In this document: piece by piece, positions 344-63,729 of the stretch
How the letters are laid out: every line of letters begins with the position of its first letter
Position numbering within the stretch: the stretch's first letter is position 1
DNA from: Oscillospiraceae bacterium
Lineage (GTDB): Bacteria; Bacillota; Clostridia; Oscillospirales; Oscillospiraceae
DNA: 64,000 nucleotides
NCBI GenBank assembly: GCA_020025595.1
Contig: JAHHRV010000007.1
Span: forward strand, 44,311-108,310
Reading direction: 5' to 3'
The notes under the pieces: generated by a model
Told to the model about the DNA's origin: nothing
The model's database searches: none
Seen by the model: the letters and a program-made list of their open reading frames with translations, nothing else
Translations under genes and position numbers: made by a program

Positions 344-3300
344 ATGAGGAAAAACAACGCAAAACGATGGGGACATCGAGCACTGGCTTTAATGCTTGCA
401 TTACTGCTGGTTCAGACAGCCCCCCTTGCTCCCCTGGCTGTCAGTGCAGCATCTACTGCAGCGCAAGCCAGTGTAGCACCTGAGGAGACTCAGGTTAACC
501 AAGCAACTGAGGAAACTCAGGTCACCGAAGCAACTGAGGAAACTCAGGTCACCGAAGCAACCGAGGAAACTCAGGTCACCGAAGCAACTGAGGAAACTCA
601 GGTTACCGAAGCAACTGAGGAAACTCAGGTCACCGAAGCAACTGAGGAAACTCAGGTCACCGAAGCAACTGAGGAAACTCAGATTGCCGAAGCAACTGAG
701 GAAACTCAGGTCACCGAAGCAACCGAGGAAACTCAGGGCACCGAAGCAACTGAGGAAACTCAGGGCACCGAAGCAACTGAGGAGACTCAGGGCAGCACAG
801 CAGCTGATAAGGTTCAGGTCTTCGCAGCATCTGGTACGGTGCAGGTCACCACTGCAGATGATCTGCCGAGTGTTATTCCTGCAGGCATGACTTACGAGCT
901 GGCTAACGACATTACTTATGAGTACGACTCCATCGATGTGCAAGGTGTTTTGGACGGAAAGGGTCACACCATTACCTTGATCGGTCAGCCTCTGGCCGAA
1001 AATGTAACCGGAAAGATCCAGAACCTGATCGTTAAATCCTCACGGCCTATGCGCAGAAATAACTCAGGCAGCATCGCCGTATATCTGACTGGCGGTAAGC
1101 TCTACAACTGCCTGTCTACCGTGACAATGTATGGAGATGTGGCAAGCCAGATGGGCGGCCTTGTTTATCGTGCAGAAGCCGGCTCAGAGATCAGAAACTG
1201 TATTTTTGCCGGAGAGTTCACGAAGGTTGCGGGATATAGTATTGTCAGAGATGCTATAGATCTCAGTAACCCTGTGAAGCCTTCCACTTTTTCTAACTGC
1301 TTTTTTGACAGCAGTAACAAAAAAGGTGCAATTGGTAACGGTAAAGAAGGCACTCATTATTACATTAAACTTCCCGTAGAAGGCAAGACTGTAGAAGAGA
1401 TGAAGACTGCCGAGTTTGTGGATCAGCTCAATCAGCAGAAGCTGGGCACAGGCTTCATCTGGAAGGCTGCAGCAGGCCAGTTCCCCATACTGGTTTCCGG
1501 AGGAGAGATCTTTGAGCAGGCCAATCTGGATAATCTGAAAGCGGCTATCAAGGATGCCGAAAGCAGACACGAGACGAACTACACAAAAGATACCTGGGCA
1601 GCTATGCAGGAAGTGCTGACTAGAGCCAGAGCGACAGTTGCTGAATTCGGCGTTTCTCAGGAAAAGGTGAATGCAGCGGCTGCAGAGCTGAATGCAGCAC
1701 TGAAAGCCCTGAAGGAAAAGGTTCGTGACCATTTCCCGGTGGAGCTTCCCAAGGATGGTATTGTTTACATTTCCAGTGCGCAAGAGTTCAAAAAAATGCA
1801 TTTCGATGATCCCAATAAAGTCTATCAGCTGACGCAGGACATCGAGATCAACAGCGGCTTCATCAACCACCCGGTGAAAGGTGTTTTCGACGGCGGCGGA
1901 CATACGATCACCCTGAATTACGGGTATTCGGGCGGCGTCCCCCTCTTTAGTGAGATCTTGTCTACCGGTGTGGTGCAGAACCTGAATGTGAGAGTAGAGG
2001 GAAGTTCCACCAATCATGAGGATTTTGCCCCTTATGCCGGAGAGCTGAAAGGCGGTATGATCGTCAACTGCGTGAGCCAGGTATCCGGTCAGTGTTCCAC
2101 CGGCTTTGTCATGAAGATGACCGAAGGCGGCGTCATGGCCAACTGCCTTACCATGGGTCATAACCGCCGTGGCGCATTCGTCCACTTCCAGAAATCTACC
2201 GACCACAGAAACACCAACGGTTTCAGTGACGGTAAGTTCTATAACTGCTACTGGGCATCCTCCAACTCTGTGGAAAACATTTTGGAGATCTCTCAGGACA
2301 GCATGTTCTCCTGCAGACCCATAGGGGATGAGGAACTGCGTTCCGACGGCTTTATGGGGCTGCTCAACCAAAACAAGGGCACAAACGGCCGTAGCTGGGG
2401 CCGAGATTCTGAGGGTTACCCCTATCTGGGCGAAGACAAGGGCGATCATGTGATCGATGGCTCCCAGAACCTTTACCCGGTAGAATTCGTATGGCACGAC
2501 GGCAGGGTCGAAACCGTGGAGAACGGCAGACTGGAACTCTCCCCTCAGATGACCACTGACAATAACCGTGTTGCCGGTAAGTTCCAGCTGAAGAATGTTC
2601 CTGAGGGAAGCACCATCAGCTGGTCCAGCGAGGACAGATCGAATCGGGATGTTATCGCTGTGTACGAAAATGCCGAGCTGTGCGTGTTCCAGGACGGCGG
2701 TGCTGTTGTAAGAGCTACCGAGCGCAAGGCTGACGGCTCCGAGCAGCTGGCTGCCGAAATTCGAGTTGTTTCCAATTCTCAGAAGATTGAACAGCTTCGC
2801 CTCGTGCTGGACGGCAAAGTTGTGGAGGACGAAATCACCGTTAAGGGCTCTGAAGATAAGACTCTGGAAATTCAGGCCAGATATGCTGGCGAGAGCGATT
2901 TCAAGCCCTTGCCTTCTTATCTTGTCAAGATGCAGCCGAAAGACCGCGACTATCTGTTCACTTCCTATAATTCTTCCACGTTCCACTGTAAAAAACCCGG
3001 CAGCAGTGTCCTTGAGGTTGTCACCCCCAAGGGTGATGTGTCTGTATCTGTAACGGTCACATCCAAGTATGTTCCCGTTAAGAGCGTAAAGCCCGGACTT
3101 GCCGGCCAAACGACGATCCACGGCAGAAACTCCATGGGCAGCGGCCAGTTTAACGACATTCCCGTAACCGTCAATGTAGAACCCGCAAACGCAAGCTACA
3201 AGGACAATTACACCGTAGAAAGCAGCAACCTTGAAATCGCTGAGTTCGGCAGCCGTAAGTCCTATGTACCCTTCAAGAACGGCACCGTCACTTTCACCGC

Positions 3301-6010
3301 AAAGATCAATGACGACGGCAAAATCGTACAGGGCACCAGTGAAGTTACATTTGTCTATCAAAATCCTCTGGTAAGTGTTACCACCCCCTCCGAGAAGATC
3401 AATGCTGAGGTTGGCAAGAAGCAGAAGCTGGATCTGACCTTTACAGGCAAGAACGCCAACTATGCTGCTGTTTCCGAGCCCGAACTGGTGTGGACTTACA
3501 GCAAGACCGGTATCGTAAGTATCAACCGTCCCAGCCCTCTGACGCAGCTGAGAGATACCAATAGCCCGGATGCCGGCGACTGGGTGGCATCCACAGAGTA
3601 TGAACTGAAACCCATGAGACCCGGCACTGTTAAAGTAACTGGAACTCCTGTGGATAAAACGGCAGGTGCAAAACCCGTGACCTTCACCGTGACTGTCACC
3701 GGTGACGAAGCCAACATCCCCGTATTTGACATTCCCAAGTTCATTGCCGCAGGCAAGGCAGCAGCAACCAAGCATTTGATGGGAAAGATCGACTATTCCT
3801 TCGGTCAGGAGTGGAACATCTACGCTCTGATGCGTGACGGACAGAAGCTGCCTCAGGACAAGCTGGACAGCTACTACAGAAGTGCAGCTGCCACCGTCAA
3901 GAGCTGGAAGTCCGACATTCTGGCTACGGAGATCGAGCGTACCGCTCTGGCTCTGAGCATTATTGGCAAGGACATCACCAATGTGGATGGTATCAATCTG
4001 GCCAATATGATCTGCAACCATCCGAATCTGGCCCGTCAGGGCAGCAACGCTCTGACCTGGGGCCTCATTGCTCTGGATCTCAAGAACACCCCGATTCCCG
4101 CCGGTGCCAAGTGGACCAGAGAGAGAATGGTAAAAGAACTGCTCACCTATCAGAACCCGGATGGCGGTTTCGGCCTTAGCAAGAATGGCGGATCCGGCCT
4201 GGATATTACTGCAATGACCTTGCAGGCACTGTCCTTCTATCAGAATATGGACGGTGTTCAGGAGGCTGTGGAGCGTGGCGTAGCCTACATGGCCAAGTGT
4301 TTAGAGAAGAATCTGGATTATGGCAACGCTGAATCCATTTCTCAGGTAGTCATCGCCCTGTCCGTTCTGGGCAGAGATCTGGTGACAGAGCCGGGCTTCG
4401 GCGATCAGGTGGACAACCTGATGTCCGCACTGGAAGCATATCTGGTGGAAGATCAGGGCTTTGAGCATGCAAAGGGTCAGGGTGTCAACACCATGGCTAC
4501 CGTGCAGGTCATGCAGGCTCTGTGTGCCTATGAGCGCTTGAGCAAGAACGAGAGCGGCTACTGGGATCTGCTGGGCAACAGACCCGTATTTGACCCGGTT
4601 GCCAATGTGATTGAAATGATCGACAAGCTGCCCGGTGAAATCACCCTCAAAGATATCGCAGCTGTCCGTGCCGCACGGAAGGCATTCGATTCCCTGCGCC
4701 CCCAGCAGCAGGAGAATGTGACCAACATCGATAAGCTCCTCAAGGCAGAGGAAGCCGTAAAGAACCTGTCTCAGAATGACAAGAAGGCACTGGAAGTGAT
4801 GGATCTCATCTCCGAACTGCCCGAGACCCCCACCCTGAAAAACGCTCAGCAGGTTCGTGCTGCCCGTCAGGCCTATAATGCCCTGACTGCAGAGCAAAGA
4901 AAGAAGGTCACAAATACCGATAAGCTCCTGAAGGCCGAAAAGACCATCGCAGATTTGGAGACCGCTCAGGAAGTTATCGATGCAATCCACGCATTCCCCA
5001 AGCCCATCACCGCAGAAGCCAAGGCTGCTATCGAAGCTGCCCGTCAGGCTTATAACGCACTGTCCAACGAGCAGAAGGAACTGGTTGTAAACCGCTATAT
5101 GCTCGAGAAGGCAGAAAAGGAACTGGAAGATGCTCTGGCAGTGAAGAAGGTGGTCGATGCCATCAACGCTCTGCCCGAGACCGTGAAAAAAGAAGACGGT
5201 GTGGCAATCAAGACCGCCCGTGCCGCCTATGAGCAGCTGAGCGATGCGCTGAAGGCTCAGGTTACCAATCTGGACAAGCTCCAGAAGGCTGAAAAGGCTC
5301 TGAAGGCCCTGCGTGTTCCCTCCGGCAAGCCCGGCGGAGCAGCTCAGGAAGAGATCGTCAGCAATCTGGTGGAAGCCAAGGTAGAAAACGGCAAGGTGTC
5401 TGCAGAGCAGCTGGAGAATATCCAGGGTAAGGATATGCTGCTGCAGATTAACGGCACTATGGAAACCGGCGAAAAGTATGTGCTTACCATCTACGGCAAG
5501 GACATCAGCAAGGCTGCAGACCTCAACACCCTCATGACCCGCAAGGGCATGCACGAAGATGACATCCGCAAGCTGGCAGATAATCCGGAAATCTTCCGCT
5601 TTGCAGAAGACGGAGCATTCCCTGCTTCCATGCTGGTGCAGCTGGAAAGCAAGCTGGAGAACGGTCAGTACCTGCTGATGCACTTCGATCCTGTGCAGCG
5701 CAATGCAACCCTTGTGACACGCGCAGATGTTAAGGACGGACAGGTGCAGTTCGTGCTGCAGGAAGGCGGCGAGTACTTCCTGGCTAAAAAAGCAAGCGCA
5801 AAGTCCTTGCTCAACGACGAAGAAACTGCAAAACCGACAGAAGAAACGATGGCACCTGAGAGCACGGAAGAGACCGTTCCTCAGATTGTGGAACAGAACA
5901 ACACTTCCGGTGGTCTTTGGATTTGGCTCGTGCTGGCAGCGGCAGTCGTAATCGGTGCTGCGATTCTGTGTGTGGTGTATATGCAGAAGAAAAAGGAGCA
6001 AAATAAGTGA
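344..6010 (+). CDS. Giant cell-surface protein. It has a signal peptide, a TEATEETQV stalk, two beta-helix-like modules, FIVAR-like helices, Ig-like (Big_2-like) domains, a prenyltransferase/terpene-cyclase-like alpha/alpha toroid, four helical repeats and a C-terminal TM anchor.
   Basis: The ORF track starts this frame at a TTG at 338. I prefer the ATG at 344, which has the GGAG core (333-336) of the aaggag RBS 7 nt upstream. The N-terminus MRKNNAKRWGHRALALMLALLLV...AVSAAS looks like a signal peptide. The motifs LDGKGHTITL and FDGGGHTITL fit beta-helix modules. The QNPDGGFGLSKNGGSGLDITAMTLQAL stretch is a toroid repeat motif. The C-terminus GLWIWLVLAAAVVIGAAILCVVYMQKKK is a TM segment with a basic tail. 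Confidence 0.85.
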   Translation: MRKNNAKRWGHRALALMLALLLVQTAPLAPLAVSAASTAAQASVAPEETQVNQATEETQVTEATEETQVTEATEETQVTEATEETQVTEATEETQVTEATEETQVTEATEETQIAEATEETQVTEATEETQGTEATEETQGTEATEETQGSTAADKVQVFAASGTVQVTTADDLPSVIPAGMTYELANDITYEYDSIDVQGVLDGKGHTITLIGQPLAENVTGKIQNLIVKSSRPMRRNNSGSIAVYLTGGKLYNCLSTVTMYGDVASQMGGLVYRAEAGSEIRNCIFAGEFTKVAGYSIVRDAIDLSNPVKPSTFSNCFFDSSNKKGAIGNGKEGTHYYIKLPVEGKTVEEMKTAEFVDQLNQQKLGTGFIWKAAAGQFPILVSGGEIFEQANLDNLKAAIKDAESRHETNYTKDTWAAMQEVLTRARATVAEFGVSQEKVNAAAAELNAALKALKEKVRDHFPVELPKDGIVYISSAQEFKKMHFDDPNKVYQLTQDIEINSGFINHPVKGVFDGGGHTITLNYGYSGGVPLFSEILSTGVVQNLNVRVEGSSTNHEDFAPYAGELKGGMIVNCVSQVSGQCSTGFVMKMTEGGVMANCLTMGHNRRGAFVHFQKSTDHRNTNGFSDGKFYNCYWASSNSVENILEISQDSMFSCRPIGDEELRSDGFMGLLNQNKGTNGRSWGRDSEGYPYLGEDKGDHVIDGSQNLYPVEFVWHDGRVETVENGRLELSPQMTTDNNRVAGKFQLKNVPEGSTISWSSEDRSNRDVIAVYENAELCVFQDGGAVVRATERKADGSEQLAAEIRVVSNSQKIEQLRLVLDGKVVEDEITVKGSEDKTLEIQARYAGESDFKPLPSYLVKMQPKDRDYLFTSYNSSTFHCKKPGSSVLEVVTPKGDVSVSVTVTSKYVPVKSVKPGLAGQTTIHGRNSMGSGQFNDIPVTVNVEPANASYKDNYTVESSNLEIAEFGSRKSYVPFKNGTVTFTAKINDDGKIVQGTSEVTFVYQNPLVSVTTPSEKINAEVGKKQKLDLTFTGKNANYAAVSEPELVWTYSKTGIVSINRPSPLTQLRDTNSPDAGDWVASTEYELKPMRPGTVKVTGTPVDKTAGAKPVTFTVTVTGDEANIPVFDIPKFIAAGKAAATKHLMGKIDYSFGQEWNIYALMRDGQKLPQDKLDSYYRSAAATVKSWKSDILATEIERTALALSIIGKDITNVDGINLANMICNHPNLARQGSNALTWGLIALDLKNTPIPAGAKWTRERMVKELLTYQNPDGGFGLSKNGGSGLDITAMTLQALSFYQNMDGVQEAVERGVAYMAKCLEKNLDYGNAESISQVVIALSVLGRDLVTEPGFGDQVDNLMSALEAYLVEDQGFEHAKGQGVNTMATVQVMQALCAYERLSKNESGYWDLLGNRPVFDPVANVIEMIDKLPGEITLKDIAAVRAARKAFDSLRPQQQENVTNIDKLLKAEEAVKNLSQNDKKALEVMDLISELPETPTLKNAQQVRAARQAYNALTAEQRKKVTNTDKLLKAEKTIADLETAQEVIDAIHAFPKPITAEAKAAIEAARQAYNALSNEQKELVVNRYMLEKAEKELEDALAVKKVVDAINALPETVKKEDGVAIKTARAAYEQLSDALKAQVTNLDKLQKAEKALKALRVPSGKPGGAAQEEIVSNLVEAKVENGKVSAEQLENIQGKDMLLQINGTMETGEKYVLTIYGKDISKAADLNTLMTRKGMHEDDIRKLADNPEIFRFAEDGAFPASMLVQLESKLENGQYLLMHFDPVQRNATLVTRADVKDGQVQFVLQEGGEYFLAKKASAKSLLNDEETAKPTEETMAPESTEETVPQIVEQNNTSGGLWIWLVLAAAVVIGAAILCVVYMQKKKEQNK
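482..805 (+). repeat. In-frame 27-bp tandem repeat, about 12 copies, encoding (A/E)TEETQVTE units
   Basis: The unit gaagcaactgaggaaactcaggtcacc is repeated head to tail with only a few substitutions, as read directly from the sequence. Confidence 0.95.
4606..5310 (+). repeat. Four tandem helical protein repeats of about 55-63 aa inside the giant protein
   Basis: The recurring pattern is V(I/M/V)(E/D).I..(L/F)P......(V/I)..AR.AY..L...Q...V.N.DKL.KAEK. It can be seen four times in the translation. Confidence 0.6.
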
Positions 6011-6708
6011 AAAGAATCATAGCGATACTGCTGTGTCTGATCATGCTTGTCGGTTTGGTAGGCTGCGGCGCACAGAAGACAGAGCAGACCGTTCAGACCG
6101 AAAGCAAACCGGAAAACGTCACAACCGAAGCAACCACTGAACCCGCGGATACCAAGCCTTCTGAATCGAAAGATGAGTTTGATGTGGAGAACATAACCGC
6201 CGAAACTCAGGATTTTTCAAAGTACGAGGAAAAGAAGGATAAGTACCTGACCGATCCCGTCCCCGAGGGACAGCAGAAGCCTGTGGAACCGGAAGATGTG
6301 CAGATCGATAAAACCAACAGCAAAACCTGCTATCTGTCCATTACCTGCCATACGATCCTGGATAATATGGGAGATCTGGAAGACGGCAAGGAAGTTCTGG
6401 TTCCCTCTGACGGCGTGATTCTTCCGGAAACCGAAGTGGAGTTCTTTGAAGGAGAATCCGTGTTCAATGTGCTGCAGAGAGAGACCCGAAACCGCCGGAT
6501 CCACATGGAATCCCGCTTCGTGTCAATGTATAACAGTGCTTATATTGAGGGCATTGGCAATCTCTATGAGTTTGACTGTGGCAGCGGCAGCGGCTGGATG
6601 TACCGTGTAAACGGCTGGTTCCCCAACTATGGTGTGAGCCGCTATGCAGTTCAGCAGGGAGATGTTATCGAGCTGATCTACACCTGTGATCTGGGTAAAG
6701 ACCTGTAA
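6007..6708 (+). CDS. DUF4430-domain lipoprotein with a transcobalamin beta-domain-like fold family
   Basis: The GTG start overlaps the upstream stop as GTGA. The lipobox is LVGLVG|C. A long acidic linker follows. The C-terminal motifs are typical of DUF4430: SVFNVLQ..., SAYIEGIGNLYEF, GSGWMYRVNGWFPNYGVSRYAVQQGDVIELIYT. Confidence 0.85.
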   Translation: MKRIIAILLCLIMLVGLVGCGAQKTEQTVQTESKPENVTTEATTEPADTKPSESKDEFDVENITAETQDFSKYEEKKDKYLTDPVPEGQQKPVEPEDVQIDKTNSKTCYLSITCHTILDNMGDLEDGKEVLVPSDGVILPETEVEFFEGESVFNVLQRETRNRRIHMESRFVSMYNSAYIEGIGNLYEFDCGSGSGWMYRVNGWFPNYGVSRYAVQQGDVIELIYTCDLGKDL

Positions 6709-6731
6709 CTGCAAAATTTAACAAAAGCGAA

Positions 6732-6765
6732 ACCGCAGATGTACTTGTTACATCTGCGGTTTTTC
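6732..6765 (+). terminator. Intrinsic terminator ending the riboswitch-controlled two-gene unit
   Basis: A 12-bp stem pairs accgcagatgta with tacatctgcggt, and tttt follows. Confidence 0.85.
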
Positions 6766-7040
6766 TTACCGTTTGTTTTGAGATAAGTATCGACCTGTTT
6801 GGCTTTTCTGAGCGGAATGGTTCACACAAGCAGATGCCGGGTAAATATTAAACCTTCCAACAGAGTTTTATAATATCATCATACAAAACCAATACAGAAA
6901 TTCCCCTAGCTTCTCAACCATTTTTTTGGAATCGTTCACTTTTAGATGCTCACAGCTGTGCAGAACAAGTCAATGGTTTCGTTCTAAAAATGTCATATAA
7001 TCACGGGAAATCCAGTATATTTTCTGCGTATGGCAGAAAC

Positions 7041-7138: not shown

Positions 7139-10100
7139 TTACAATCTATGCTTCTTCCCATAGACAACAGCCAAACAAATAACAGAGGCAGTAAACATTG
7201 TCACGAGCATAAACACGCTGTTATCACCTGTATGCGGTGAACCTTGATCAGGCGCTTTTTCGGTATTATCTGTACTGCCGGTATTCTGGGTGCTTTCCGT
7301 ATTTTGAGCAGTCTCTGTACTCAGAGTCCCCTCTGTGCTTTCCGTACTCTCCGTACTCTGAGTTGCCTCGGTACTTTCTGTACTCTCTGTGCTCTGAGTT
7401 GCCTCGGTACTTTCCGTACTCTCTGTGCCCTGAGTTGCCTCGGTGCTTTCAGTACTCTCTGTGCCCTGAGTTGCCTCAGTACTTTCCGTACTCTCCGTGC
7501 TCTGAGTTGCCTCAGTACTTTCCGTGCTCTCCGTGCTCTGAGTACCCTCTGTGCTTTCCGTGCTCTCCGTGCTCTGAGTACCCTCTGTGCTTTCCGTAGA
7601 CTCAGTTGCTTCGGTGGTTTCTGTTGTTTCGGTATTTCCGCCGCCACCAGAACCATCGTCAATGTCTGTTACATTGACATAGACACTATCCGCATAGACA
7701 TCGTCAATTTCATAGCCATTGGCAACAACCCTCTTAATACTTCTATCCGCTTCCACCTTAACCGACACAGTATATCCTTCCAGATTATCCTTCAGCAAGT
7801 CCAGTGTAGCAGATTTTGCCGTTGCAAGAACCTTGGTTTCCTGAACAACCTTGTCACCATCGTAGATTCTGACCAGAATATCCCGGCTGCCCTCTTGCTT
7901 ATATGTATCCCAAGTGACATGAAGCTTTCCGTTCTCCACGCGGTATTTCGGATTCTGAACCGCCGGCAGCTGGATTCTGGAATCATCATAATCATTCAAG
8001 TTCAAAGCAGAAACAGGCTCAATCTCGACTGCCTTATCCTGCAGTACATAGACCGAAGCAGACATATCCTTGGAATTCACAACAACTTGTCCATTTCTTA
8101 CCGTCACGGTATTACCGGACATAACATCTTTCAAAACATCGCCGTCCTTGAAGCCGTAACGCTCCAATCTGTCCAGTGTGATGGTTTTGGAAGCATTTTT
8201 ATCGCTGTTATTCAGGATCGTGATGGCTTTGTTCTGATTGCCGTAACGCGCATATGCGATGTACTGGTCGTCTCTGTGAGACTTGATTTCCTCAAATGCA
8301 CCATATACAAATGCATCCTGATTCTTTTTGCGCGTTGCAATCAAAGTTCTGTAATCATCGAGCATCTCTGTATTCCAGTTATCCAGATTCCAGTCAAATG
8401 TTGCTCTGTTATAAGGATCTTTGCCCTCACCTTTGCCGACCATGCCGATTTCATCGCCATAATAAATCATGGGAATGCCGGGATATGTCATTTGCAGTGC
8501 AATTGCAAGCTCCATCATGGCATTATTATCAGGTCCAACATAATCCCAGTTCAGGAAACGCTGCTTATCATGGGTGGAAATGGAGTTTGTCGAATTCAGG
8601 ATTGTCTGATACGGGAAGCCCTTAAAGTAATTTCTTGTGAAGATGCCGATATCGGCAACACTCATCAGCTTTCCATCTTCGTTGGTCTTATTATCGAGGC
8701 TCTGATTGCCCAGCCAGGAATTAGCACTTCTGTTCTCGATGAAAGGCATCATGAATCCGCCGTAATTCATTTTAGAATCCCAAGCTTTTCCATAGTACCA
8801 TTGATTATCGTTGCCCCAGAATTCGCCCAGGACAAAGGCGTCTTCCTTCACATCTCTAACCGCTGAACGGAATTCCTGCCAGATCTTCAGGTTTGCCTCT
8901 CTCTGCTGTTCATCCGTCTGCTTGGCATTGATGTCCAGTTGAGGATCATACTTGTAGTCTCTGGGGGCGACGTTAACATCTTCTGCTGCATCCAATCTCC
9001 AGCCATCAATATTGTAAGGCGGACGCATATAACGCTTTGCAATGGAGTTTTCAGCACCGTAGATGTACATCTTCAAGTCTTCATTGCTATAGTTAAGCTT
9101 TGCCAGATTGGTGTAGCCGTGCCACGGATAGAAGTCAATGGCAATTCCAGACTTGTCCACATACTTTCCTTCGTCGTAGAAGTAATAGCGATCCTTGAAT
9201 TTCTGGAACAAATCGCCCTCGACACTTGTATGGTTAAATACACCGTCAAGAATCAAGTTCATGTTATTTTGATCCAGTGCAGAACTCAATTCCACCAGCG
9301 CCTGGTTACCACCGAAGTTTTTATCGACGAACTCATAGGTATCTGCATCGTATTTGTGGTCACTTCCCGACTGGAAAATTGGCATCAGATACAGTGCATC
9401 TACACCCAAAACATCTTTTAGATATGGAATTGCTTCGTTGACACCGATCAGGTCACCGCCGAAGAACTGGTTATTCCAAATCATGTCACTTTCGGTACCG
9501 TTGAATATTTCACCATTCCATGCTCCGATTTCCGAAGGATTGCCAAACTGGGAAACATCCTTGGCAACTCTGTTGTTGCTGGAGTCACCGTCTCTGAAAC
9601 GGTCTACCATAATCTGATAAAATACAGATTCTTTCGACCATTTAGGAGTCGAATAATCCGGAACAATGGAGAAACCATAGTCAATACCAGATTTAGGATT
9701 GGACGGGTCAAATTTGGGAGCTGTTTCGGTTACACCTCGATTGTTACCGCCAGCGCCACCGCTGATCCACGCTGTCTTTACAGGGCTTGCCGCCGTATTC
9801 TTCACTTCAAAGTTATAATACTTTGTGCTTGCACCCGCAGGGATGACGCCCTCCCAGAACTCGATCTTGGATTTGTCGTAGCCCTTTCCATCATAGAACG
9901 CATCATCTGTAATTTTAGACATTTCGACCTGACGGGTCTCCCGTGTTGCCTCGTCATAATAATGTACATAGGCTTCTGTGATCTCGCCTGCCTTGGCTCT
10001 GAAACGAACCTTTACATCATCCGTGGATTTGGGCTCCATGGGTTCCATGTAGTCAACACTCTGGTCAGCAAACAAATAATCCCACTGGATATCCTCCTTT

Positions 10101-13100
10101 GCCCCCTCCTGATCGTACAGAACCATCATACTGTTAGGACTAATCTTAAAGTCAACAGTATCTCCATTCTGTGTGATCACCTTGATCGGAGTCTTCAGAT
10201 TCACTCCGGTATAATCTGCAACCACATTCCATTTGCCACTTGTGGACTGGGGCAACCAGGTAATGGCCTTCTCATTCATAGAGCCGTTGTAAATCACCAG
10301 GATGTTTTTCCATGTATCCCCGTTCGCATGATCCATCAAATACTGCAGGATAATTTCATCATCATAGTTCAAACGATATACCTTCTGGTGACTCTGAATC
10401 TGATCCTTCGAAGTCATGCGGAACGCAGGGTGTTCCTTTCGCAGCTGAATCAGGCCCTTGTAATAGTTAAAGACCTCCTCATATTCTGCCTTGTCCGCCC
10501 AGTCAATATCATTGATTTCATCATTGCTCTTATAACTATTATGGTCACCCTGTTTGGTTCTTAGGATCTCGGATCCACCCTGGAAGAACGGGATTCCCTG
10601 AGAAGTCAGAACCAAGCCACTGCCAAGAATGGTCTTTTTGACTCTCCAATCTGACAGAGCATCCTCGGAAATGCCTTCTCTGAACTTTCCGTTTTCAACT
10701 CCGGTCTCACTTTTTTCAACCTGATCCCAAATGGAGTAGTTGTCATGGGCTTCTACATAGTTAATGATATACTCGGGATCATTAACCAAACTGCCGGTAG
10801 AACCTCTGATGCCCTCCTGGACCTCTCCGGAGGATTGCTCACTGATCCCACCATTGATAAATCCTTTACCGGGGTTATTGTCGCCTCTCAATGCATTGCG
10901 ATATACATCGTTAAAAGCAGCAATTCCCTTATTCTTGGTGGTTTGCTGGTCTCCGGGCAGCGGAGAAGCCGCTGCTGCCCAAGGTTCACCGTAAACGATG
11001 ATAGACGGATCGAGTTTCTGCGCCTCTGTCTTGACTTCGTTCATTGTCTCCTGATCCAACAACGCCATCAGATCAAAGCGCAAGCCATCGACCTTATAGT
11101 CCTTGATCCAATGCAAGTTAGAGTCCACAATGAACTTTCTAACCATGGGTCTTTCAGATGCAACTTCGTTTCCGCAACCGGAACCGTTGGACTTGCTTCC
11201 ATTGGGCCAGCTTCTGAAATAGTATCCCGGAACAATGTTGTTCATGTTGTCGACAGAATACATATGGTTATACACCTGATCCAAGACAACTCTGATATTG
11301 TTTTTATGCATTCCCTGAACCATCTGTCTGAATTCCAGAATTCTGGTTTTGGGATTTGTGGGGTCTGTGGAATAGCTTCCCTCCGGAACATTATAGTGTT
11401 TCGGATCGTAACCCCAATTTCGGTTCGGCTCTCCATTTTCTTTCAAACCACCAAAGCCGAGGTCGCCTGTTTCTTCAACGGATGCGATATCGTATGTAGG
11501 CAGCAGATGAACGTGTGTAACACCCAGTTCTTTCAAATGGTCAAGTCCTGTTGTTACTGTTTTGCCGTTTGCATCTTTATAGGTTGTTCCTTCTTCTACA
11601 ACACCTAAATACTTACCTGCGTGTTCTGATTTACCACCCCAATCGCTGTCAATGGTAAAATCTCTGACGTGCATCTCATAAATGATAGAGTCTTCGGGAT
11701 GAACCAGCTCCGGTCGATCGGTTTTTTCCCAGCCTGCAGGTATTGTCTCAGGATCATTGATATCCAGCAAAACACCCTTTGCACCGTCTGTTCCAACTGC
11801 ATTGGCATATGGATCAACTGCGTAGGTGATTCTGTCAACAATCTTTCCTTCTGTATCTCGCATTTTGAAATGCAGCCTGTACATATAATACTGATTGTAG
11901 TTTGCACCACGGTCAATTGTGATGTAGTGCGTGCCGTCACCATTTGCAAAACTCATCGGATATGTCGCAGTAGGATCCTCTACTGCCTGCTCTACACTGT
12001 TATAAGTAAGAACTTCGACTTTATGTGCAGTCGGTGCCCACAGTCTCAGGTTGATCTGGCTGTCTGTGTAGGTGGCGCCCATATCATTTCCATCGTAATA
12101 GAAACTGTCTAACACATTCCGCATTACCACTGTCGTGGGCATTGTGAACATATTATCAGCTTTGACCTCAAGGAGTGCTGCTGTATCCAGTGTATCTGCA
12201 ATAGAAGATGTATCAAATACCACCTTTTTGTCATCTTCATAAACGGTAGCCTGTACATTCTCTTGCTTTACATCATCGATATAAAGCGCAAAGTTGATAC
12301 CTGCCCGTGGCTTTTCAGAAAGGTAGGCTGTGATGCTTTCCTTGCTGTCCATAATGGCAGTAGTGATTTTGGGTCTTGCCGCCAGTACCGCACTTTCCAG
12401 CGAAGTGTATAGATTGGGGTCATCTTTGATGATATATGCATTTTTCTGGTCCAAAGGAACTTCATATGTAGGTGTTTCCTCTTGCCAGTCTCCTTTTCTG
12501 ACAATCACACGATCTTTTGTCAGAAAAGCTGCTTTACCCAAATCGGTGTCTTCGTCGAAATTGACCGGTGTTCCATTTCCCCCCTGACCGAAACTCCAGT
12601 AGTTCCACTGGTCGTAATTCCCATCTTGTTTCAGGAAATGAACCAATGTACCATTTGTTTCATTTTGGGATACTGTAACGGTTTTTGTTGTAAATTCTGT
12701 TCCTGCTGTAGCTTTGATTTCAATAGTTGTTCCGTCTGCTACATCTTCAGAAACCCACAACTGATGATTCTCTATACGCGCACCAGGAACATCTTGACTA
12801 AGTTCCAGATTCGCGTCATTTTCAATTTTTATATTGGCGTATTCATCCGTTGTCAGAGCAATAACATCCACCGGGCAGTTTGCTGACACGGTATCTCTGG
12901 AGGTCTTTATTTTCAAAGACGAGCTTGGCGCAACCGGCTCTTCTTTCTCCCAGTGGAAGCTTGAATCGTCTCCGTCATATCCACTCTGATTGATCCATTC
13001 TTCTGAGCCATCTTCTTTAATCAGAATGAACTTATACTTATAATCTCCGGTTGCCAGATCGCCGACATAGACATCAGCCATCATCTTCCAAATGTTATTG

Positions 13101-13393
13101 TCATTGGGATCCTCTTTCCATTCGAGCTTACAGTTGTCGCTTTTTTCCCAATTATTAAATTCGCCAACCGCATAAGCGTATTTGTAACCATCCGCCTTAA
13201 CGATAAATTTAATTGTCTTGTTCGCAGGATTCTGATACAATGCCGTGTATCTTTGCGGTGCTTCAGCAGAAATCACCATCCATGGCTGGATCAGCGATAC
13301 AGAAAATGCAAGTACCAGAATCAGCGATATCACTTTTTTATATACTGCGGATTTCATGCTTGTTTTACTATTTCTGTCATTACTAAAAATCAC
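7139..13393 (-). CDS. Cell-wall-anchored amylopullulanase with two GH13 catalytic modules, a type I pullulanase-like module followed by an alpha-amylase/neopullulanase-like module
   Basis: Module 1 carries GH13 regions I-IV: VLDQVYNHM, DGLRFDLMAL, YGEPW, VEAHDN. Module 2 carries LDGVFNHTS, DGWRLDAAED, LGEFWG, ISTHDK. There is an N-terminal signal/TM segment and CBM-like domains. The GTG start at 13393 has GAGGAG 7 nt upstream. An internal ATG (MKSAVYKK) is an alternative start. Confidence 0.9.
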   Translation of the reverse strand: MIFSNDRNSKTSMKSAVYKKVISLILVLAFSVSLIQPWMVISAEAPQRYTALYQNPANKTIKFIVKADGYKYAYAVGEFNNWEKSDNCKLEWKEDPNDNNIWKMMADVYVGDLATGDYKYKFILIKEDGSEEWINQSGYDGDDSSFHWEKEEPVAPSSSLKIKTSRDTVSANCPVDVIALTTDEYANIKIENDANLELSQDVPGARIENHQLWVSEDVADGTTIEIKATAGTEFTTKTVTVSQNETNGTLVHFLKQDGNYDQWNYWSFGQGGNGTPVNFDEDTDLGKAAFLTKDRVIVRKGDWQEETPTYEVPLDQKNAYIIKDDPNLYTSLESAVLAARPKITTAIMDSKESITAYLSEKPRAGINFALYIDDVKQENVQATVYEDDKKVVFDTSSIADTLDTAALLEVKADNMFTMPTTVVMRNVLDSFYYDGNDMGATYTDSQINLRLWAPTAHKVEVLTYNSVEQAVEDPTATYPMSFANGDGTHYITIDRGANYNQYYMYRLHFKMRDTEGKIVDRITYAVDPYANAVGTDGAKGVLLDINDPETIPAGWEKTDRPELVHPEDSIIYEMHVRDFTIDSDWGGKSEHAGKYLGVVEEGTTYKDANGKTVTTGLDHLKELGVTHVHLLPTYDIASVEETGDLGFGGLKENGEPNRNWGYDPKHYNVPEGSYSTDPTNPKTRILEFRQMVQGMHKNNIRVVLDQVYNHMYSVDNMNNIVPGYYFRSWPNGSKSNGSGCGNEVASERPMVRKFIVDSNLHWIKDYKVDGLRFDLMALLDQETMNEVKTEAQKLDPSIIVYGEPWAAAASPLPGDQQTTKNKGIAAFNDVYRNALRGDNNPGKGFINGGISEQSSGEVQEGIRGSTGSLVNDPEYIINYVEAHDNYSIWDQVEKSETGVENGKFREGISEDALSDWRVKKTILGSGLVLTSQGIPFFQGGSEILRTKQGDHNSYKSNDEINDIDWADKAEYEEVFNYYKGLIQLRKEHPAFRMTSKDQIQSHQKVYRLNYDDEIILQYLMDHANGDTWKNILVIYNGSMNEKAITWLPQSTSGKWNVVADYTGVNLKTPIKVITQNGDTVDFKISPNSMMVLYDQEGAKEDIQWDYLFADQSVDYMEPMEPKSTDDVKVRFRAKAGEITEAYVHYYDEATRETRQVEMSKITDDAFYDGKGYDKSKIEFWEGVIPAGASTKYYNFEVKNTAASPVKTAWISGGAGGNNRGVTETAPKFDPSNPKSGIDYGFSIVPDYSTPKWSKESVFYQIMVDRFRDGDSSNNRVAKDVSQFGNPSEIGAWNGEIFNGTESDMIWNNQFFGGDLIGVNEAIPYLKDVLGVDALYLMPIFQSGSDHKYDADTYEFVDKNFGGNQALVELSSALDQNNMNLILDGVFNHTSVEGDLFQKFKDRYYFYDEGKYVDKSGIAIDFYPWHGYTNLAKLNYSNEDLKMYIYGAENSIAKRYMRPPYNIDGWRLDAAEDVNVAPRDYKYDPQLDINAKQTDEQQREANLKIWQEFRSAVRDVKEDAFVLGEFWGNDNQWYYGKAWDSKMNYGGFMMPFIENRSANSWLGNQSLDNKTNEDGKLMSVADIGIFTRNYFKGFPYQTILNSTNSISTHDKQRFLNWDYVGPDNNAMMELAIALQMTYPGIPMIYYGDEIGMVGKGEGKDPYNRATFDWNLDNWNTEMLDDYRTLIATRKKNQDAFVYGAFEEIKSHRDDQYIAYARYGNQNKAITILNNSDKNASKTITLDRLERYGFKDGDVLKDVMSGNTVTVRNGQVVVNSKDMSASVYVLQDKAVEIEPVSALNLNDYDDSRIQLPAVQNPKYRVENGKLHVTWDTYKQEGSRDILVRIYDGDKVVQETKVLATAKSATLDLLKDNLEGYTVSVKVEADRSIKRVVANGYEIDDVYADSVYVNVTDIDDGSGGGGNTETTETTEATESTESTEGTQSTESTESTEGTQSTESTESTEATQSTESTESTEATQGTESTESTEATQGTESTESTEATQSTESTESTEATQSTESTESTEGTLSTETAQNTESTQNTGSTDNTEKAPDQGSPHTGDNSVFMLVTMFTASVICLAVVYGKKHRL
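7259..7636 (-). repeat. Thr/Glu/Ser-rich tandem repeat (about 36-bp units, STESTESTEATQ) forming a C-terminal stalk
   Basis: The translation reads TESTESTEGTQSTESTESTEATQ... over about 126 aa. The periodic DNA repeat is visible at 7300-7600. Confidence 0.9.
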
Positions 13394-25442: not shown

Positions 25443-25572
25443 ATCATCCCCTATTTTAATATAAGTCAGCCCAATTGACAACATATATTTCTTTTTTTTG
25501 CAAATTCTTTTTTATATGTTCACAATTCTATGGTCCTGAAAGGGAAAAAATCCCGCAGTATCGCTTTTTCTG

Positions 25573-25601
25573 TTGCAAAGCAGACTGGAATGGTTTATAA
25601 T
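25573..25601 (+). promoter_or_regulatory. Sigma-A promoter of glnS
   Basis: TTGCAA (25573-78), a 17-nt spacer and TATAAT (25596-601). Confidence 0.7.
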
Positions 25602-25646
25602 GTGTCCATTATGGAAAATCTCGCAATAAGAGAGGAAGGTAACAAA

Positions 25647-27326
25647 ATGGCTGAAATTAACGAAAGCAAAAATTTCATCCACGCTTTTATTGAAGAAGAC
25701 ATCGCTGAGGGCGGTCGCTACGCAGGTATGACCGTTCACACCCGTTTTCCGCCCGAGCCCAACGGCTATCTGCACATCGGACACTGCAAGGCACTGACCA
25801 TCGACTTCGGCACTGCCGAAAAGTTTGGCGGTGTGTGCAATCTGCGTATGGACGACACCAATCCCACCAAAGAAGATGTGGAATTCGTGGAAGCCATTCA
25901 GGAAGATATTCACTGGCTGGGTTTTGACTGGGATGACCGTTTCTTCTACGGCTCTGATTATTTTGAAAAAGACTATGAATTTGCCGTTGAGCTGATTCAG
26001 AAGGGTCTTGCATATGTCTGCCAGCTGACTCCCGAGGAGTTCAAGGCAAACCGCGGTGATGTGGATCATCCCGCAGTTTCTCCCTACCGTGACCGTCCCA
26101 TCGAAGAGAGCCTGGATCTGTTCCGCAGAATGAGAGAGGGCGAATTCGAGGACAACACCATGACCCTGAGAGCCAAGATTGATCTGGCTTCCGGCAACTT
26201 CAATATGCGCGACCCGGTTATCTACCGAATCCGTCATATGCATCACCATCGTCAGGGCGACAAGTGGTGCATCTACCCCATGTACGACTTTGCTCACCCC
26301 ATTCAGGACGCTCTGGAAGGTATTACCCACTCCCTGTGTTCTCTGGAATTTGAGAACCACCGTCCCCTGTACAACTGGGTCGTGGAGCACGTCAGCGTTC
26401 CCCATCATCCCCGTCAGATCGAGTTTGCCCGTCTGGGCATCGATCACACCGTCCTGTCCAAGCGCAAGCTGAGACAGCTGGTGGAAGAGGGTCATGTTTC
26501 CGGCTGGGACGATCCCAGAATGCCCACTCTGTGCGGCCTGCGCCGCCGTGGCTACACTCCCAAGTCCATCCGTAACTTCTGCGACCGTGTTGGTGTCGCC
26601 AAGTCCCCCAACACCATCGAGTACGGTTTCCTGGAGCACTGCCTGCGTGAGGATCTGAACGAAACTGCTACCCGTGTGATGGCAGTTATTAAGCCCATCA
26701 AGCTCACCATTACCAACTATCCCGAGGGCCAGAGCGAGACCTTCCAGGTTGAAAACAACCCCGTGGATGAGACCGCCGGCACCAGAGAAGTTACCTTCTC
26801 CCGGAACCTGTGGATTGAAGCAGACGACTTCATGGAGACTCCCATTCCCAAGTACAAGCGTCTGACTCCCAATGGCCTTGAGTGCCGCCTGAAGGGTGCA
26901 TACCTGATCACCTGCACCGGCTGCGTCAAGGACGAAAACGGCAATGTTGTGGAAGTTCTGGCTACCTACGATCCCGAGTCTCAGGGCGGCAATCCCGCCG
27001 ACGGCCGCAAGGTCAAGGGCGCTACCATCCATTGGGTGGATGCTGACAACTGCTGCGAGGCAGAGGTTCGTCAGTACTCCAACCTCTTTGATGATCCCGA
27101 TCCCGATGCCGCAGGCAAGGATTTCATTGCCTGCCTGAATCCCAACTCTCTGGAAGTTCTGACCGGCTGTAAGGTGGAAAAGAGCCTGGAAAATGCAAAG
27201 GCTCCCGCTTCCTATCAGTTCATGCGTCTGGGCTACTTCTGCCCCGACAGCAAGGATTCTTCCGCTGAGCACCTGGTGTTCAACCGTTCCGTCAGCCTGA
27301 AGGACAGCTACAAGCCCAACAAGTAA
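25647..27326 (+). CDS. glnS: Glutamine--tRNA ligase
   Basis: It has the class I HIGH motif (PEPNGYLHIGH) and a KMSKS-like VLSKRK. The start at 25647 has the RBS agaggaagg. The track's N-terminal extension from 25530 is rejected. Confidence 0.93.
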   Translation: MAEINESKNFIHAFIEEDIAEGGRYAGMTVHTRFPPEPNGYLHIGHCKALTIDFGTAEKFGGVCNLRMDDTNPTKEDVEFVEAIQEDIHWLGFDWDDRFFYGSDYFEKDYEFAVELIQKGLAYVCQLTPEEFKANRGDVDHPAVSPYRDRPIEESLDLFRRMREGEFEDNTMTLRAKIDLASGNFNMRDPVIYRIRHMHHHRQGDKWCIYPMYDFAHPIQDALEGITHSLCSLEFENHRPLYNWVVEHVSVPHHPRQIEFARLGIDHTVLSKRKLRQLVEEGHVSGWDDPRMPTLCGLRRRGYTPKSIRNFCDRVGVAKSPNTIEYGFLEHCLREDLNETATRVMAVIKPIKLTITNYPEGQSETFQVENNPVDETAGTREVTFSRNLWIEADDFMETPIPKYKRLTPNGLECRLKGAYLITCTGCVKDENGNVVEVLATYDPESQGGNPADGRKVKGATIHWVDADNCCEAEVRQYSNLFDDPDPDAAGKDFIACLNPNSLEVLTGCKVEKSLENAKAPASYQFMRLGYFCPDSKDSSAEHLVFNRSVSLKDSYKPNK

Positions 27327-27355
27327 TCCCGGCGGTTCTGCGTTCATAAAATCAT

Positions 27356-27391
27356 ATGGAGCGTATCGGTATTCGATACGCTCCATTTTTC
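27356..27391 (+). terminator. Intrinsic terminator after glnS
   Basis: A 13-bp perfect stem pairs atggagcgtatcg with cgatacgctccat, and tttt follows. Confidence 0.9.
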
Positions 27392-27478
27392 TGCATTTGT
27401 CTGATTTTTCCTTTCGTGGACTTTGTGGAATTTCTGTGTTATAGTCCATATATAACAAGAAAATGAGCGTGACATTCT

Positions 27479-27997
27479 GTGAAGAACGGTTTTCGGTCAT
27501 TTGGAAAAGCAATCCTGTATGCCCTTGCGTATCTGCTGATCCAAAATCTTGTCGGTTTGGTATATACCATAACTGTCGATTTTTCCTATTTTCTGAAGCA
27601 CCCGGATATTCTCCATCTGGGGCCTTCGCAGATTGCGTCCCTGATTGAATATATGCACGCAGGAAACTCCGGACTGCATATCATTCTGCCGCTTTTTCTT
27701 TCCAATCTGGCAGCAGTACTGCTGATGTGGCTTTTCTTTGCCGTCAGAAAGAAAAAATTCTCCCAGGAAATCGGATTGCATAAAATCAGCGGAAAGAATC
27801 TGGCGGCGGCAATTGTATTCGGCAGCACCTTCTCCATCGTGTTGACGGCTGCCATCGCCCAGCTGACACAGAATGTCACCGGGATTCCCTTCTGGAGCGT
27901 TGGCGTATGCCTTGCAGGGCTGGTTCTGGTCATCATCTATCTCATCCGGAATAACAGAAGAAAGCCCGTATCAGCGGTTTTCCCTGCAGAAACCTAA
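27479..27997 (+). CDS. Small polytopic membrane protein that resembles only the N-terminal half of a CPBP-family intramembrane protease
   Basis: It has about four hydrophobic segments and a ...FFAVRKKKFSQEIGLHK... linker like CPBP proteins, but no EExxxR or FxxxH catalytic motifs. The GTG start has a weak RBS. Confidence 0.5.
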   Translation: MKNGFRSFGKAILYALAYLLIQNLVGLVYTITVDFSYFLKHPDILHLGPSQIASLIEYMHAGNSGLHIILPLFLSNLAAVLLMWLFFAVRKKKFSQEIGLHKISGKNLAAAIVFGSTFSIVLTAAIAQLTQNVTGIPFWSVGVCLAGLVLVIIYLIRNNRRKPVSAVFPAET

Positions 27998-60131: not shown

Positions 60132-60160
60132 TTTACAAACGGAAGGAAAGATGGTATTAT
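60132..60160 (+). promoter_or_regulatory. Candidate sigma-A promoter of nifJ
   Basis: TTTACA, a 17-nt spacer and TATTAT. Confidence 0.55.
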
Positions 60161-60201
60161 ATATGGGACAAAATTTGTAATACTTTAGGAGGTATTTCGT
60201 T

Positions 60202-63200: not shown

Positions 63201-63729
63201 CTCCAACACCGGTGGACAGGCTTCCAAGGCTTCCAACATCGGCCAGGTTGCTCAGTTTGCAGCTTCCGGTAAGGAAACCAAGAAGAAGTCTCTGTCCGAG
63301 ATCGCAATGAGCTATGGCTACGTTTATGTTGCTCAGATCGCTATGGGCGCTAACCCCGCTCAGACCATCAAGGCAATCACCGAGGCTGAAGCTTACCACG
63401 GTCCTTCCCTGATCATTGGCTACGCTCCCTGTGAGATGCACTCCATCAAGGGCGGCATGACCAACTGCCAGGCTGAGATGAAGAAGGCTGTTGATTGCGG
63501 CTACTGGAACCTGTTCCGCTTTGATCCTTCCAAGGAGACCGGCAAGTTCACTCTGGACTCCAAGGCTCCTAAGGATGGCTACCAGGCATTCCTGATGAAC
63601 GAAGCTCGTTACAGCCGTCTGACCCGCGAGTTCCCCGAGCGTGCTACCGACCTGTTCGCTAAGAACGAGGCTGCCGCTAAGGAGCGTTACGAGCATCTGC
63701 TCAAGCTGGTTGAGATGTACAAGGACTAA
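60202..63729 (+). CDS. nifJ: Pyruvate:ferredoxin (flavodoxin) oxidoreductase
   Basis: The protein is 1175 aa. It has TMDGNTAAAHVSYAFTEV, two 4Fe-4S motifs (CIQCNNCSYVCPH, CMGCGVCVNVCP) and the TPP domain GGDGWAYDIG. The TTG start has AGGAGG 8 nt upstream. Confidence 0.96.
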   Translation: MARKFKTMDGNTAAAHVSYAFTEVAGIYPITPSSPMADYVDQWSAAGRKNIFGDTVKVVEMQSEAGASGTVHGSLAAGALTTTYTASQGLLLMIPNMYKIAGELLPCVFHVSARTVAAQALNIFGDHSDVYACRQTGFAMLCETNVQEVMDLGAVAHLASIEGRVPFINFFDGFRTSHEIQKVAIWDYDDLKEMVNMDAVDAFRKHSLNPERPAMRGSHENDDIFFQHREACNKYYDALPAVVEKYMAKVNEKLGTNYQLFNYYGAPDADRIIIAMGSINDVAEEVIDYLNAHGEKVGLVKVRLFRPFCPEKLLAAIPETVKKIAVLDRTKEPGSQGEPLYMDVVMALANAGKNDVKVIGGRYGLGSKDTHPASVFAVYEELAKDAPKHEFTLGIVDDVTHLSLEEKPSPNTAAEGTIECKFWGLGGDGTVGANKNSIKIIGDHTGKFVQAYFQYDSKKTGGVTVSHLRFGDKEIKSPYYINKADFVACHNPSYITKGFKIVQDVKPGGVFLINCQWNLEELSHHLDAASKRYIANNNIQLYTINAIDLAIKVGMGKRTNTILQSAFFSLAKVMPSEEAIGYMKAAAEASYLKKGRDVVDANWNAIDAGATAYVKVDVPADWATAEDNASDAALEGNAATVAMVKNILNPIGKMDGYSLPVSAFEDYADGQFTLGAAAYEKRGVAVTVPEWDQTKCIQCNNCSYVCPHATIRPYALTEAEAAAAPAGTKMVPVKAGKGKGVYTYALAISPLDCMGCGVCVNVCPVGAIKMVPQESQLPEQEVFNYMVSKVADKPDMMDNTVKGSQFRKPLLEFSGSCAGCAETSYARLVTQLFGDRMYISNATGCSSIWGGPAATSPYTVNADGHGPAWANSLFEDNAEHGLGMYTAQAVLRESLANKVKAVMENTSSEERKAACQNWLDTFNDGEANKAATKALIADLEANVCCDTVKDILSKKEYLSKKSVWIFGGDGWAYDIGFGGVDHVLASNMDVNIFVFDTEVYSNTGGQASKASNIGQVAQFAASGKETKKKSLSEIAMSYGYVYVAQIAMGANPAQTIKAITEAEAYHGPSLIIGYAPCEMHSIKGGMTNCQAEMKKAVDCGYWNLFRFDPSKETGKFTLDSKAPKDGYQAFLMNEARYSRLTREFPERATDLFAKNEAAAKERYEHLLKLVEMYKD

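Follow-up and report, generated by a model that had tools for sequence, protein, structure and literature searches.

A B12-riboswitch operon of an Oscillospiraceae bacterium and its probable role in corrinoid capture at the cell surface

In the gut, Firmicutes and Bacteroidota are competitors for one scarce and structurally varied pool of cobamides. The machinery with which Bacteroides species capture these compounds is now known in detail. The subject of this work is a two-gene operon at the beginning of a 64,000-nucleotide stretch of contig JAHHRV010000007.1 from an Oscillospiraceae bacterium (the whole stretch is hereafter called the window). The operon encodes a giant surface protein that contains an alpha/alpha toroid, along with a small lipoprotein that contains a DUF4430 domain. 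The operon is probably a module for capturing corrinoids (the vitamin B12 family) at the Gram-positive cell surface, made only when B12 is scarce. Since a B12 riboswitch controls proteins with the two halves of the animal B12-carrier fold, the most likely function of the two surface proteins would be to catch B12 outside the cell.

The idea itself is already published. Burroughs, Balaji, Iyer and Aravind (2007; Biol Direct 2:4; PMC1796856) described a bacterial transcobalamin-like beta-grasp domain (SLBB) fused to alpha/alpha toroids in either order, together with multidomain forms bearing immunoglobulin (Ig) and FIVAR modules and with operons containing CbiO/CbiQ; they predicted a function in B12 scavenging and proposed a Gram-positive origin of the animal B12 carriers. 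The family of the window pair resembles these systems of low-GC Gram-positives, whose secreted or cell-surface proteins have a transcobalamin C-terminal-type domain and which also comprise toroids, Ig/FIVAR modules and CbiO/CbiQ-like (energy-coupling factor, ECF) operons. It differs in architecture, since the paper has fusions and multidomain SLBB proteins, whereas the window toroid protein lacks SLBB and the SLBB domain resides on a lipoprotein of its own; neither riboswitch control nor the link to the transporter CbrT figured in that analysis. A split alpha/beta pair was later proposed by Verplaetse et al. (2019; bioRxiv 10.1101/864751) to feed an ECF transporter in Lactobacillus sakei. There, Lsa1840 (alpha-like) and Lsa1839 (beta-like) are likewise two separate exported proteins, thought to form a heterodimer that feeds the ECF transporter Lsa1836-1838, and their numbering (lsa1836-1840) suggests the gene order that is canonical in the relatives described below. 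The ligand assigned to that system is heme, whereas B12 riboswitches and a CbrT-like S component in the present family point to corrinoids, and the window toroid is only one domain of a much larger, anchored protein. The window operon also lacks transporter genes, which sets it apart from both published systems. Because these two studies had proposed its parts, the hypothesis of a split transcobalamin is a rediscovery of published predictions. What the present analysis adds are riboswitch statistics, the link to CbrT and a structure-based result on natural fusions; its value is that of a sharpened, testable case.

Among animal proteins, transcobalamin (TC), intrinsic factor (IF) and haptocorrin (HC) are the obvious terms of comparison. 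Their beta domain belongs to the same Pfam family (PF14478) as the lipoprotein domain, their alpha half shares the alpha/alpha toroid fold, and natural bacterial alpha-to-beta fusions match TC, HC and IF first in the PDB. The differences are that the window has two polypeptides instead of one linker-joined chain (single-chain versions exist in relatives), that the window toroid is not PF01122 by sequence, and that the window proteins are membrane-anchored, and the family membrane- or wall-anchored, in contrast to the soluble animal carriers. In Bacteroides, the surface lipoproteins BtuG, BtuH and BtuJ (PMC8941943; PMC13616437) offer a possible functional analogy: they are riboswitch-controlled, catch cobamides ahead of a membrane transporter and operate in the same ecosystem. 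Their folds (beta-propeller, Ig-like or DUF4465) are unrelated and serve an outer-membrane TonB system, not a Gram-positive ECF transporter; none of the Pfam or NCBIfam matches for any part of either window protein is a binding domain of the BtuG/BtuH/BtuJ type. The missing capture step of Gram-positives has its obvious candidate in the toroid-DUF4430 family because this family is very abundant (more than 4185 DUF4430 clusters and 239 species-level toroid matches), controlled by B12 riboswitches and tied to the only proven type of Gram-positive ECF B12 importer. It also bears on the origin of the animal B12 carriers and on the assignment of the L. sakei system to heme or to B12.

Control of the operon and its two domains

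The features on which the argument depends are the following.

27-209, + strand: cobalamin riboswitch aptamer (Rfam RF00174, matched over the full length of the model, 90.4 bits, E=4.6e-21; gathering score 31.5)
274-306, + strand: intrinsic terminator of the riboswitch expression platform (hairpin 274-299 with an 11-bp stem, then a U-run; terminator scan)
344-6010, + strand: giant surface protein of 1888 aa, read from the ATG at 344 (ORF 338/344-6010; open reading frame list and translation)
3725-4570, + strand: alpha/alpha toroid domain, proposed alpha half of a corrinoid binder (aa ~1128-1410; family hidden Markov model (HMM) 3755-4570, E=2e-92)
6007-6708, + strand: DUF4430 (transcobalamin-beta-like, SLBB) lipoprotein, 233 aa (PF14478 at aa 149-226, E=4.8e-15; family HMM, E=2e-57)
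6730-6775, + strand: operon terminator (hairpin 6730-6762 with a 14-bp stem plus T-run, bidirectional), with no ECF genes after it

A preliminary description of this DNA had proposed two separate, co-transcribed and surface-tethered polypeptides under B12 control, and each of these elements is found. The operon has both features of a cobalamin riboswitch regulon, namely an RF00174 aptamer upstream on the same strand and an expression platform. The terminator hairpin is stable in both the minimum free energy and the centroid fold, and the segment AGAAGGU at 204-211, able to pair with its 5' arm, might serve as an antiterminator. A ribosome-binding site (AAAGGAG) lies 8 nt 5' of the ATG of the giant gene. 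The two genes overlap by 4 nt: the GTG start of the lipoprotein gene lies within the AAG-TGA end of the giant open reading frame, 9 nt downstream of an AAGGAG, so that both genes are translationally coupled, and the next terminator lies at 6730-6762. The giant protein begins with a Sec signal peptide (aa 1-35) and ends with a transmembrane anchor (aa ~1858-1880) and the basic tail KKKEQNK. The lipoprotein has a lipobox (LVG/C, with Cys20) followed by a linker of ~85 aa rich in E, T, K and D, after which comes the domain (nt 6325-6705). The acidic Thr/Glu-rich tether attributed to each protein exists in this form on the lipoprotein only. In the giant protein, the long TEATEETQV repeat array forms the distal, free N-terminal end of the mature chain and does not lie between toroid and anchor; the acidic stretch ahead of the transmembrane helix measures only ~35 aa.

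The toroid had been placed at residues ~1127-1405 from repeats such as QNPDGGFGLSKNGGSGLDITAMTLQALSFYQ, a motif that begins at aa 1270 (nt 4151). Taken from the single sequence, this call is weak, as the excised domain matches only Prenyltrans in Pfam (E=1e-4), with 22.3 bits under a cut-off of 26.5 bits. Once homologs are included, it is solid. A profile of 49 toroid sequences (A1) finds squalene-hopene cyclase (SHC) in the PDB at 5e-19, and drimenyl-PP synthase is matched by toroid sequence profiles at about 1e-13. The AlphaFold2 model is all-helical (pLDDT 93.4, pTM 0.90), every top Foldseek match to it is an alpha/alpha toroid, and the family HMM covers nearly the same interval. The relation to class II terpene cyclases and prenyltransferase beta subunits is that of members of one superfamily, with a QW-like NPDGG[FW]G repeat and a D-x-T-A segment recognisably homologous. 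Unlike the cyclases, however, the window toroid is single and extracellular, a domain of ~280 aa inside a secreted, anchored protein instead of the two-toroid (beta-gamma) cyclase layout, and it has no isoprenoid-pathway context. Its segment GLDITAM aligns with DVDDTCY of 7xq4, the DxDD motif of class II cyclases, and retains only the middle Asp; the family consensus at this position of the cyclase acid is DxDxTAM. Since only one Asp of the DxDD motif remains, an enzymatic cyclase role is unlikely.

For the DUF4430 protein, a single-sequence phmmer search against the PDB returned signal-peptide noise only, and a small profile of eight sequences was therefore used. Its seven best matches are all beta domains of TC2/TC1, HC and IF (E 0.003-0.04), and the invariant Trp of the DUF4430 SGW motif lines up with the Trp of TC, HC and IF in the profile alignment. 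By these alignments, DUF4430 is the TC/IF/HC beta domain and homologous to it, as proposed in the preliminary description and as already equated with the TC C-terminal domain in vertebrate work (PMC4350170). A separate idea, cobalt ligation by conserved cysteines of the lipoprotein DUF4430 as in BtuM, was rejected, the four Cys columns being 41-69% conserved across 65 loci.

Neighbourhoods and fusions in related genomes

A search with the toroid yielded 51 protein clusters, of which eight are natural DUF4430 fusions; SLH or LPXTG anchors are present in many of the others. Genomes, one per species, were then scanned with a 10-sequence alignment (A3), the 49-sequence alignment being too divergent for this purpose. 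This gave 239 toroid relatives, and the 80 loci in named genomes were kept; neighbourhoods were scored with dedicated HMMs of toroid and DUF4430 and of the T, A and S components of the ECF transporter. The nearest genomes by toroid are Ruthenibacterium, Faecousia and other metagenome-assembled genomes (MAGs) of Oscillospiraceae (71-77% identity). The canonical gene order is toroid, DUF4430, T, AA', S. In 68 of the 80 loci, DUF4430 lies on the same strand, downstream and within 3 kb of the toroid, and T and S components are present in 59. When only loci that retain 7 kb or more of flank downstream are counted, DUF4430 is found in 46 of 49 and ECF genes in 45. The reverse search with the lipoprotein gave more than 4185 clusters at E<=1e-3; among eight loci sampled, toroids are upstream in seven and ECF genes downstream in six. 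The co-occurrence of DUF4430 with the toroid family in prokaryotes, mentioned in the preliminary description, is thus borne out from both sides, and by natural fusions in three domain orders as well. Since the two domains are neighbours or fused in most genomes that carry them, they probably cooperate on corrinoids.

Riboswitches were counted with a covariance model (R1) built from four Rfam-confirmed aptamers. It matches in 55 of the 80 loci, upstream of the toroid in 49, with 71 of 72 matches on the operon strand. When ten matches, weak ones included, were re-checked against the Rfam gathering score, nine passed; the exception (L034, 29.8 bits) was dropped, so that the count is 54 of 80. Many of the riboswitch-negative loci are cut off at their 5' end. 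Rfam-confirmed cobalamin riboswitches also stand 5' of DUF4430-ECF operons that adjoin metH and ornithine aminomutase, and genes for these two B12-dependent enzymes are among the neighbours of the relatives. The surface anchors of the family are varied and comprise SLH, LPXTG, transmembrane and lipobox types.

The strongest functional link, which had escaped the preliminary description, is the ECF transporter with a CbrT-like S component that follows the pair in relatives. ECF-CbrT of Lactobacillus delbrueckii (PDB 6FNP; PMC5997447) is an experimentally proven importer of cobalamin and cobinamide. In Ruthenibacterium sp. MAG055, the ortholog of the giant protein (62% identity over 1743 aa) is followed by DUF4430, T, AA' and S, and the S component matches chain A of 6FNP (E=2.4e-13), taken as CbrT because of its length of 182 aa. 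Two features distinguish these operons from ECF-CbrT: ECF transporters are said to operate with no extracellular binding protein, whereas here binder genes regularly precede the transporter, and the S component of toroid-DUF4430 operons has an N-terminal extension of ~250 aa. To judge from the relatives, the pair would belong to the B12 regulon and would normally stand directly upstream of such a transporter; families and context together suggest that both proteins act on corrinoids and serve an importer of the ECF-CbrT type. The interpretation given in the preliminary description is, on the whole, supported.

Toroid and DUF4430 also occur on single chains, in three architectures: DUF4430-toroid-LPXTG (Bacilli, Neobacillus), toroid-Ig-DUF4430 and toroid-TM-TM-DUF4430, where TM is a transmembrane segment (at least 220 members). 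Riboswitch-like elements stand 5' of both fusion types examined, the first and the third. That three independent fusion architectures exist argues for physical cooperation of the two domains. One alpha-to-beta fusion, P0049, was modelled as a proxy for the toroid and DUF4430 pair of the window (pLDDT 86.7, pTM 0.68). The 13 best PDB matches to this model are all TC, HC or IF, with both domains aligned over 526-571 columns (E 1e-7 to 6e-6), and the first prenyltransferase follows behind them at 1.3e-5.

Several loci depart from the canonical layout. The P0049 fusion (L086, 6546-9626) stands behind a riboswitch-like element and two small genes (116 and 261 aa) for which no informative family was matched, with no ECF genes nearby. 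In Neobacillus niacini (L088, 7698-13452), a riboswitch is followed by a DUF4430-toroid-anchor fusion, a separate second DUF4430 protein and T-AA'-S. Some operons encode binders only: L089/L090 (3645-9344) has three toroid domains on two proteins, two DUF4430 genes and a riboswitch-type element, without ECF genes, and in L010 (4695-10739) a protein of 1917 aa, which carries two toroids as well as SLH anchors, stands alone behind a riboswitch. In Acetobacterium (L043, L058, L060 and L072, ~9270-10200), an extra S-component-like gene lies directly after the toroid, besides the S gene that ends the ECF cluster. Three or four cobalamin riboswitches are present per 17-kb locus in L048, L049 and L055, each 5' of a different toroid, DUF4430 or ECF gene. 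Such riboswitches are also found 5' of BspA-type LRR_5 surface proteins (L012, 9990-11209; L005, 15040-17323; L095, 12421-13275), examples of which are a 279-aa LRR_5 protein in Blautia and a giant LRR_5+DUF4430+PQQ+FIVAR+SLH protein. In L095, an LRR_5 gene also comes after the ECF S gene. LRR_5 proteins may thus belong to the Gram-positive B12 regulon as an additional, undescribed component. Downstream of the pair in L001, an xerDC RNA motif (6271-6393; Rfam RF03062, 130 bits) lies beside integrase genes.

Capture mechanism and competing explanations

The giant protein is a long stalk protein, membrane-anchored at its C-terminus, that displays the toroid, and the lipoprotein holds the beta domain on its flexible acidic tether. 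In the mechanism proposed here, the toroid crater and the beta domain would bind the corrinoid between them, as a clamp formed in trans around a single ligand, or one would hand it on to the other, after which the membrane-proximal lipoprotein would deliver it to an importer of the ECF-CbrT type. Since the operon stops after the lipoprotein gene, this importer would be encoded elsewhere in the genome.

Several observations weigh against this proposal. Corrinoid binding by members of the family is a prediction, and the only experimental paper on a homologous operon, that of L. sakei, reports heme uptake (bioRxiv 10.1101/864751). The HMMs for the ECF T and S components give 0 matches anywhere in the 64-kb window, as opposed to the ortholog operon of Ruthenibacterium with its transporter genes. 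The resemblance to TC domains is also uneven. It holds for the beta domain by profile and for the toroid at the level of the fold, TC (4zrp_A) being the best Foldseek match (E=1.1e-4, TMq 0.58), but not as specificity for TC: farnesyltransferase (FTase) beta has the same E-value, RabGGTase beta and GH88/105 match equally well, and unsaturated glucuronyl hydrolases are also listed. Pfam Cobalamin_bind (PF01122) is matched by 0 of 49 toroid family members at E<=0.1, and neither A1 nor A5, the profile of the toroid-DUF4430 fusion family, matches TC, IF or HC in the PDB at E<=10, terpene cyclases appearing instead. The toroid is thus not specifically TC-like; by structure and by sequence, it stands no nearer to the alpha domain of TC than to prenyltransferases and terpene cyclases. 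The P0049 model is TC-like in domain composition and order, yet it does not reproduce the closed holo sandwich, because superposition on TC-type structures gives TM-scores of only 0.39-0.52 and root-mean-square deviations of 11-16 Å. Finally, one locus (L002) has the order riboswitch-DUF4430-T-AA'-S and no toroid within 10 kb, and N. niacini keeps its beta lipoprotein although the toroid has a beta domain in cis. A strict 1:1 heterodimer of the split-TC kind is therefore not required.

The main rival explanation starts from these exceptions. It holds that the DUF4430 lipoprotein is an autonomous corrinoid shuttle for the ECF S component and the toroid a separate distal binder or reservoir, with no alpha/beta heterodimer. 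The layout in N. niacini hints at such a relay over a simple split, and it recurs in other Bacilli (L018, L019, L032 and others), where a separate DUF4430 gene is kept next to T despite the DUF4430 in cis on the toroid protein. The locus without a toroid, the giant two-toroid protein alone under a riboswitch and the open geometry of the fusion model are all in keeping with it, as is the human TC beta domain, which has been crystallised by itself in several states (PDB 5NO0 series, as referred to in bioRxiv 10.1101/864751). By analogy, the two binders might be compared with BtuH/BtuJ versus BtuG in Bacteroides. The canonical Clostridial operon, however, has the lipoprotein as its sole beta domain and the toroid gene immediately upstream; the three fusion architectures suggest a joint physical action; and it is established knowledge that TC, IF and HC need both domains for tight ligand binding (PMC1796856). 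Separate action of the two proteins is on these grounds rather unlikely.

A related and tentative suggestion concerns the operons that encode binders only, in the window as well as in L089/L090 and L010. They might serve as Gram-positive 'fishing rods' or surface reservoirs that hoard cobamides far outside the wall, with a relay from the distal toroid to the proximal beta lipoprotein and on to a transporter encoded elsewhere; this is possible, though doubtful as matters stand. If true, these operons would correspond, in Gram-positive bacteria, to the BtuG/H/J relay of Bacteroides, and their building blocks would be the very two domains whose later fusion in animals gave transcobalamin.

Capture of heme or another tetrapyrrole for an ECF-type importer, as claimed for Lsa1839/Lsa1840, is very improbable for the window pair. 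The L. sakei operon does have the same parts in the same order (alpha-like, beta-like, T, AA', S, as deduced from gene numbering), and it has been tied to heme uptake by a deletion mutant and docking (bioRxiv 10.1101/864751). Yet in the window and in 54 of 80 relatives the genes are under cobalamin riboswitches, the S component that accompanies them resembles CbrT, B12 meets no competition from hemin in ECF-CbrT (PMC5997447), and the neighbouring enzymes metH and ornithine aminomutase depend on B12.

A last alternative, in which the toroid is part of an adhesin as an enzyme or a glycan- or isoprenoid-binding module (like a terpene cyclase, a prenyltransferase or a six-hairpin glycosidase) and is linked to DUF4430 only incidentally, is extremely unlikely: its best sequence relatives of solved structure are indeed class II terpene cyclases, Foldseek lists glucuronyl hydrolases, and FIVAR-like and Ig-like modules are typical of glycan-binding surface proteins, but the toroid is a single extracellular domain, its DxDD motif is degenerate (GLDIT versus DVDDT), no glycoside hydrolase family was matched by Pfam on the window domains and 49 relatives, and the linkage to DUF4430, riboswitches and ECF-CbrT-like genes is far too regular for chance.

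Other parts of the giant protein and of the window

Outside the toroid, the giant protein consists of the following parts.

475-791, + strand: 27-nt tandem repeat (Tandem Repeats Finder: period 27, 11.7 copies, 93% matches)
827-2443, + strand: two paralogous N-terminal domains without Pfam/NCBIfam family (aa 162-462 and 463-700, GxGHTITL motif)
2444-3724, + strand: beta-rich, probably Ig-like spacer (aa 701-1127; sub-threshold Ig-type Pfam matches only)
4601-5311, + strand: four helical repeats of ~59 aa, a probable rigid stalk (anchors at aa 1426, 1489, 1548 and 1607)
5315-5908, + strand: C-terminal domain and short acidic pre-anchor segment (Pfam and NCBIfam searched, no match)

As a Pfam search with the full-length 1888-aa protein returned no match, the domains were cut out and searched separately; NCBIfam names none of the parts of either protein. 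The tandem repeat encodes ~12 copies of TEATEETQV and is acidic (T 28%, E 28%). The two paralogous domains are 29% identical to each other (E=7e-15, internal BLASTP), and NCBIfam gives FIVAR-type local matches only; a FIVAR-like helical module follows the first of them at nt 1532-1711 (FIVAR E=1e-5, below the cut-off). Both domains are kept in the Ruthenibacterium ortholog, and similar FIVAR-bearing N-termini are found in giant proteins of Blautia and Oscillospiraceae. At the position of the spacer, homologs bear Big_2 or Big-like domains. The helical repeats follow the pattern I-x-x-[LF]-P ... A-R-x-A-Y-x-x-L ... K-L-x-K-A-E, which is also kept in the Ruthenibacterium ortholog; neither Pfam nor NCBIfam has a family that matches it.

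Elsewhere, the window contains housekeeping genes of a spore-forming Clostridium relative. Among them are ispG, dxr and uppS, which are unrelated to the operon and lie on the other strand, at least 13 kb away. Two open reading frames on the - strand have no Pfam match, one of 666 aa (25512-27512) at an E cut-off of 1e-3 and one of 1199 aa (60157-63756) at 1e-5. Encoded by the next gene after the operon and convergent with it, a 2084-aa amylopullulanase-like protein (7139-13393, - strand) carries alpha-amylase, CBM48, CBM20 and pullulanase domains. A polysaccharide deacetylase (28063-29796, - strand) bears three SLH domains, from which it follows that the organism has an SLH-anchoring cell wall; the giant toroid protein uses a transmembrane anchor instead.

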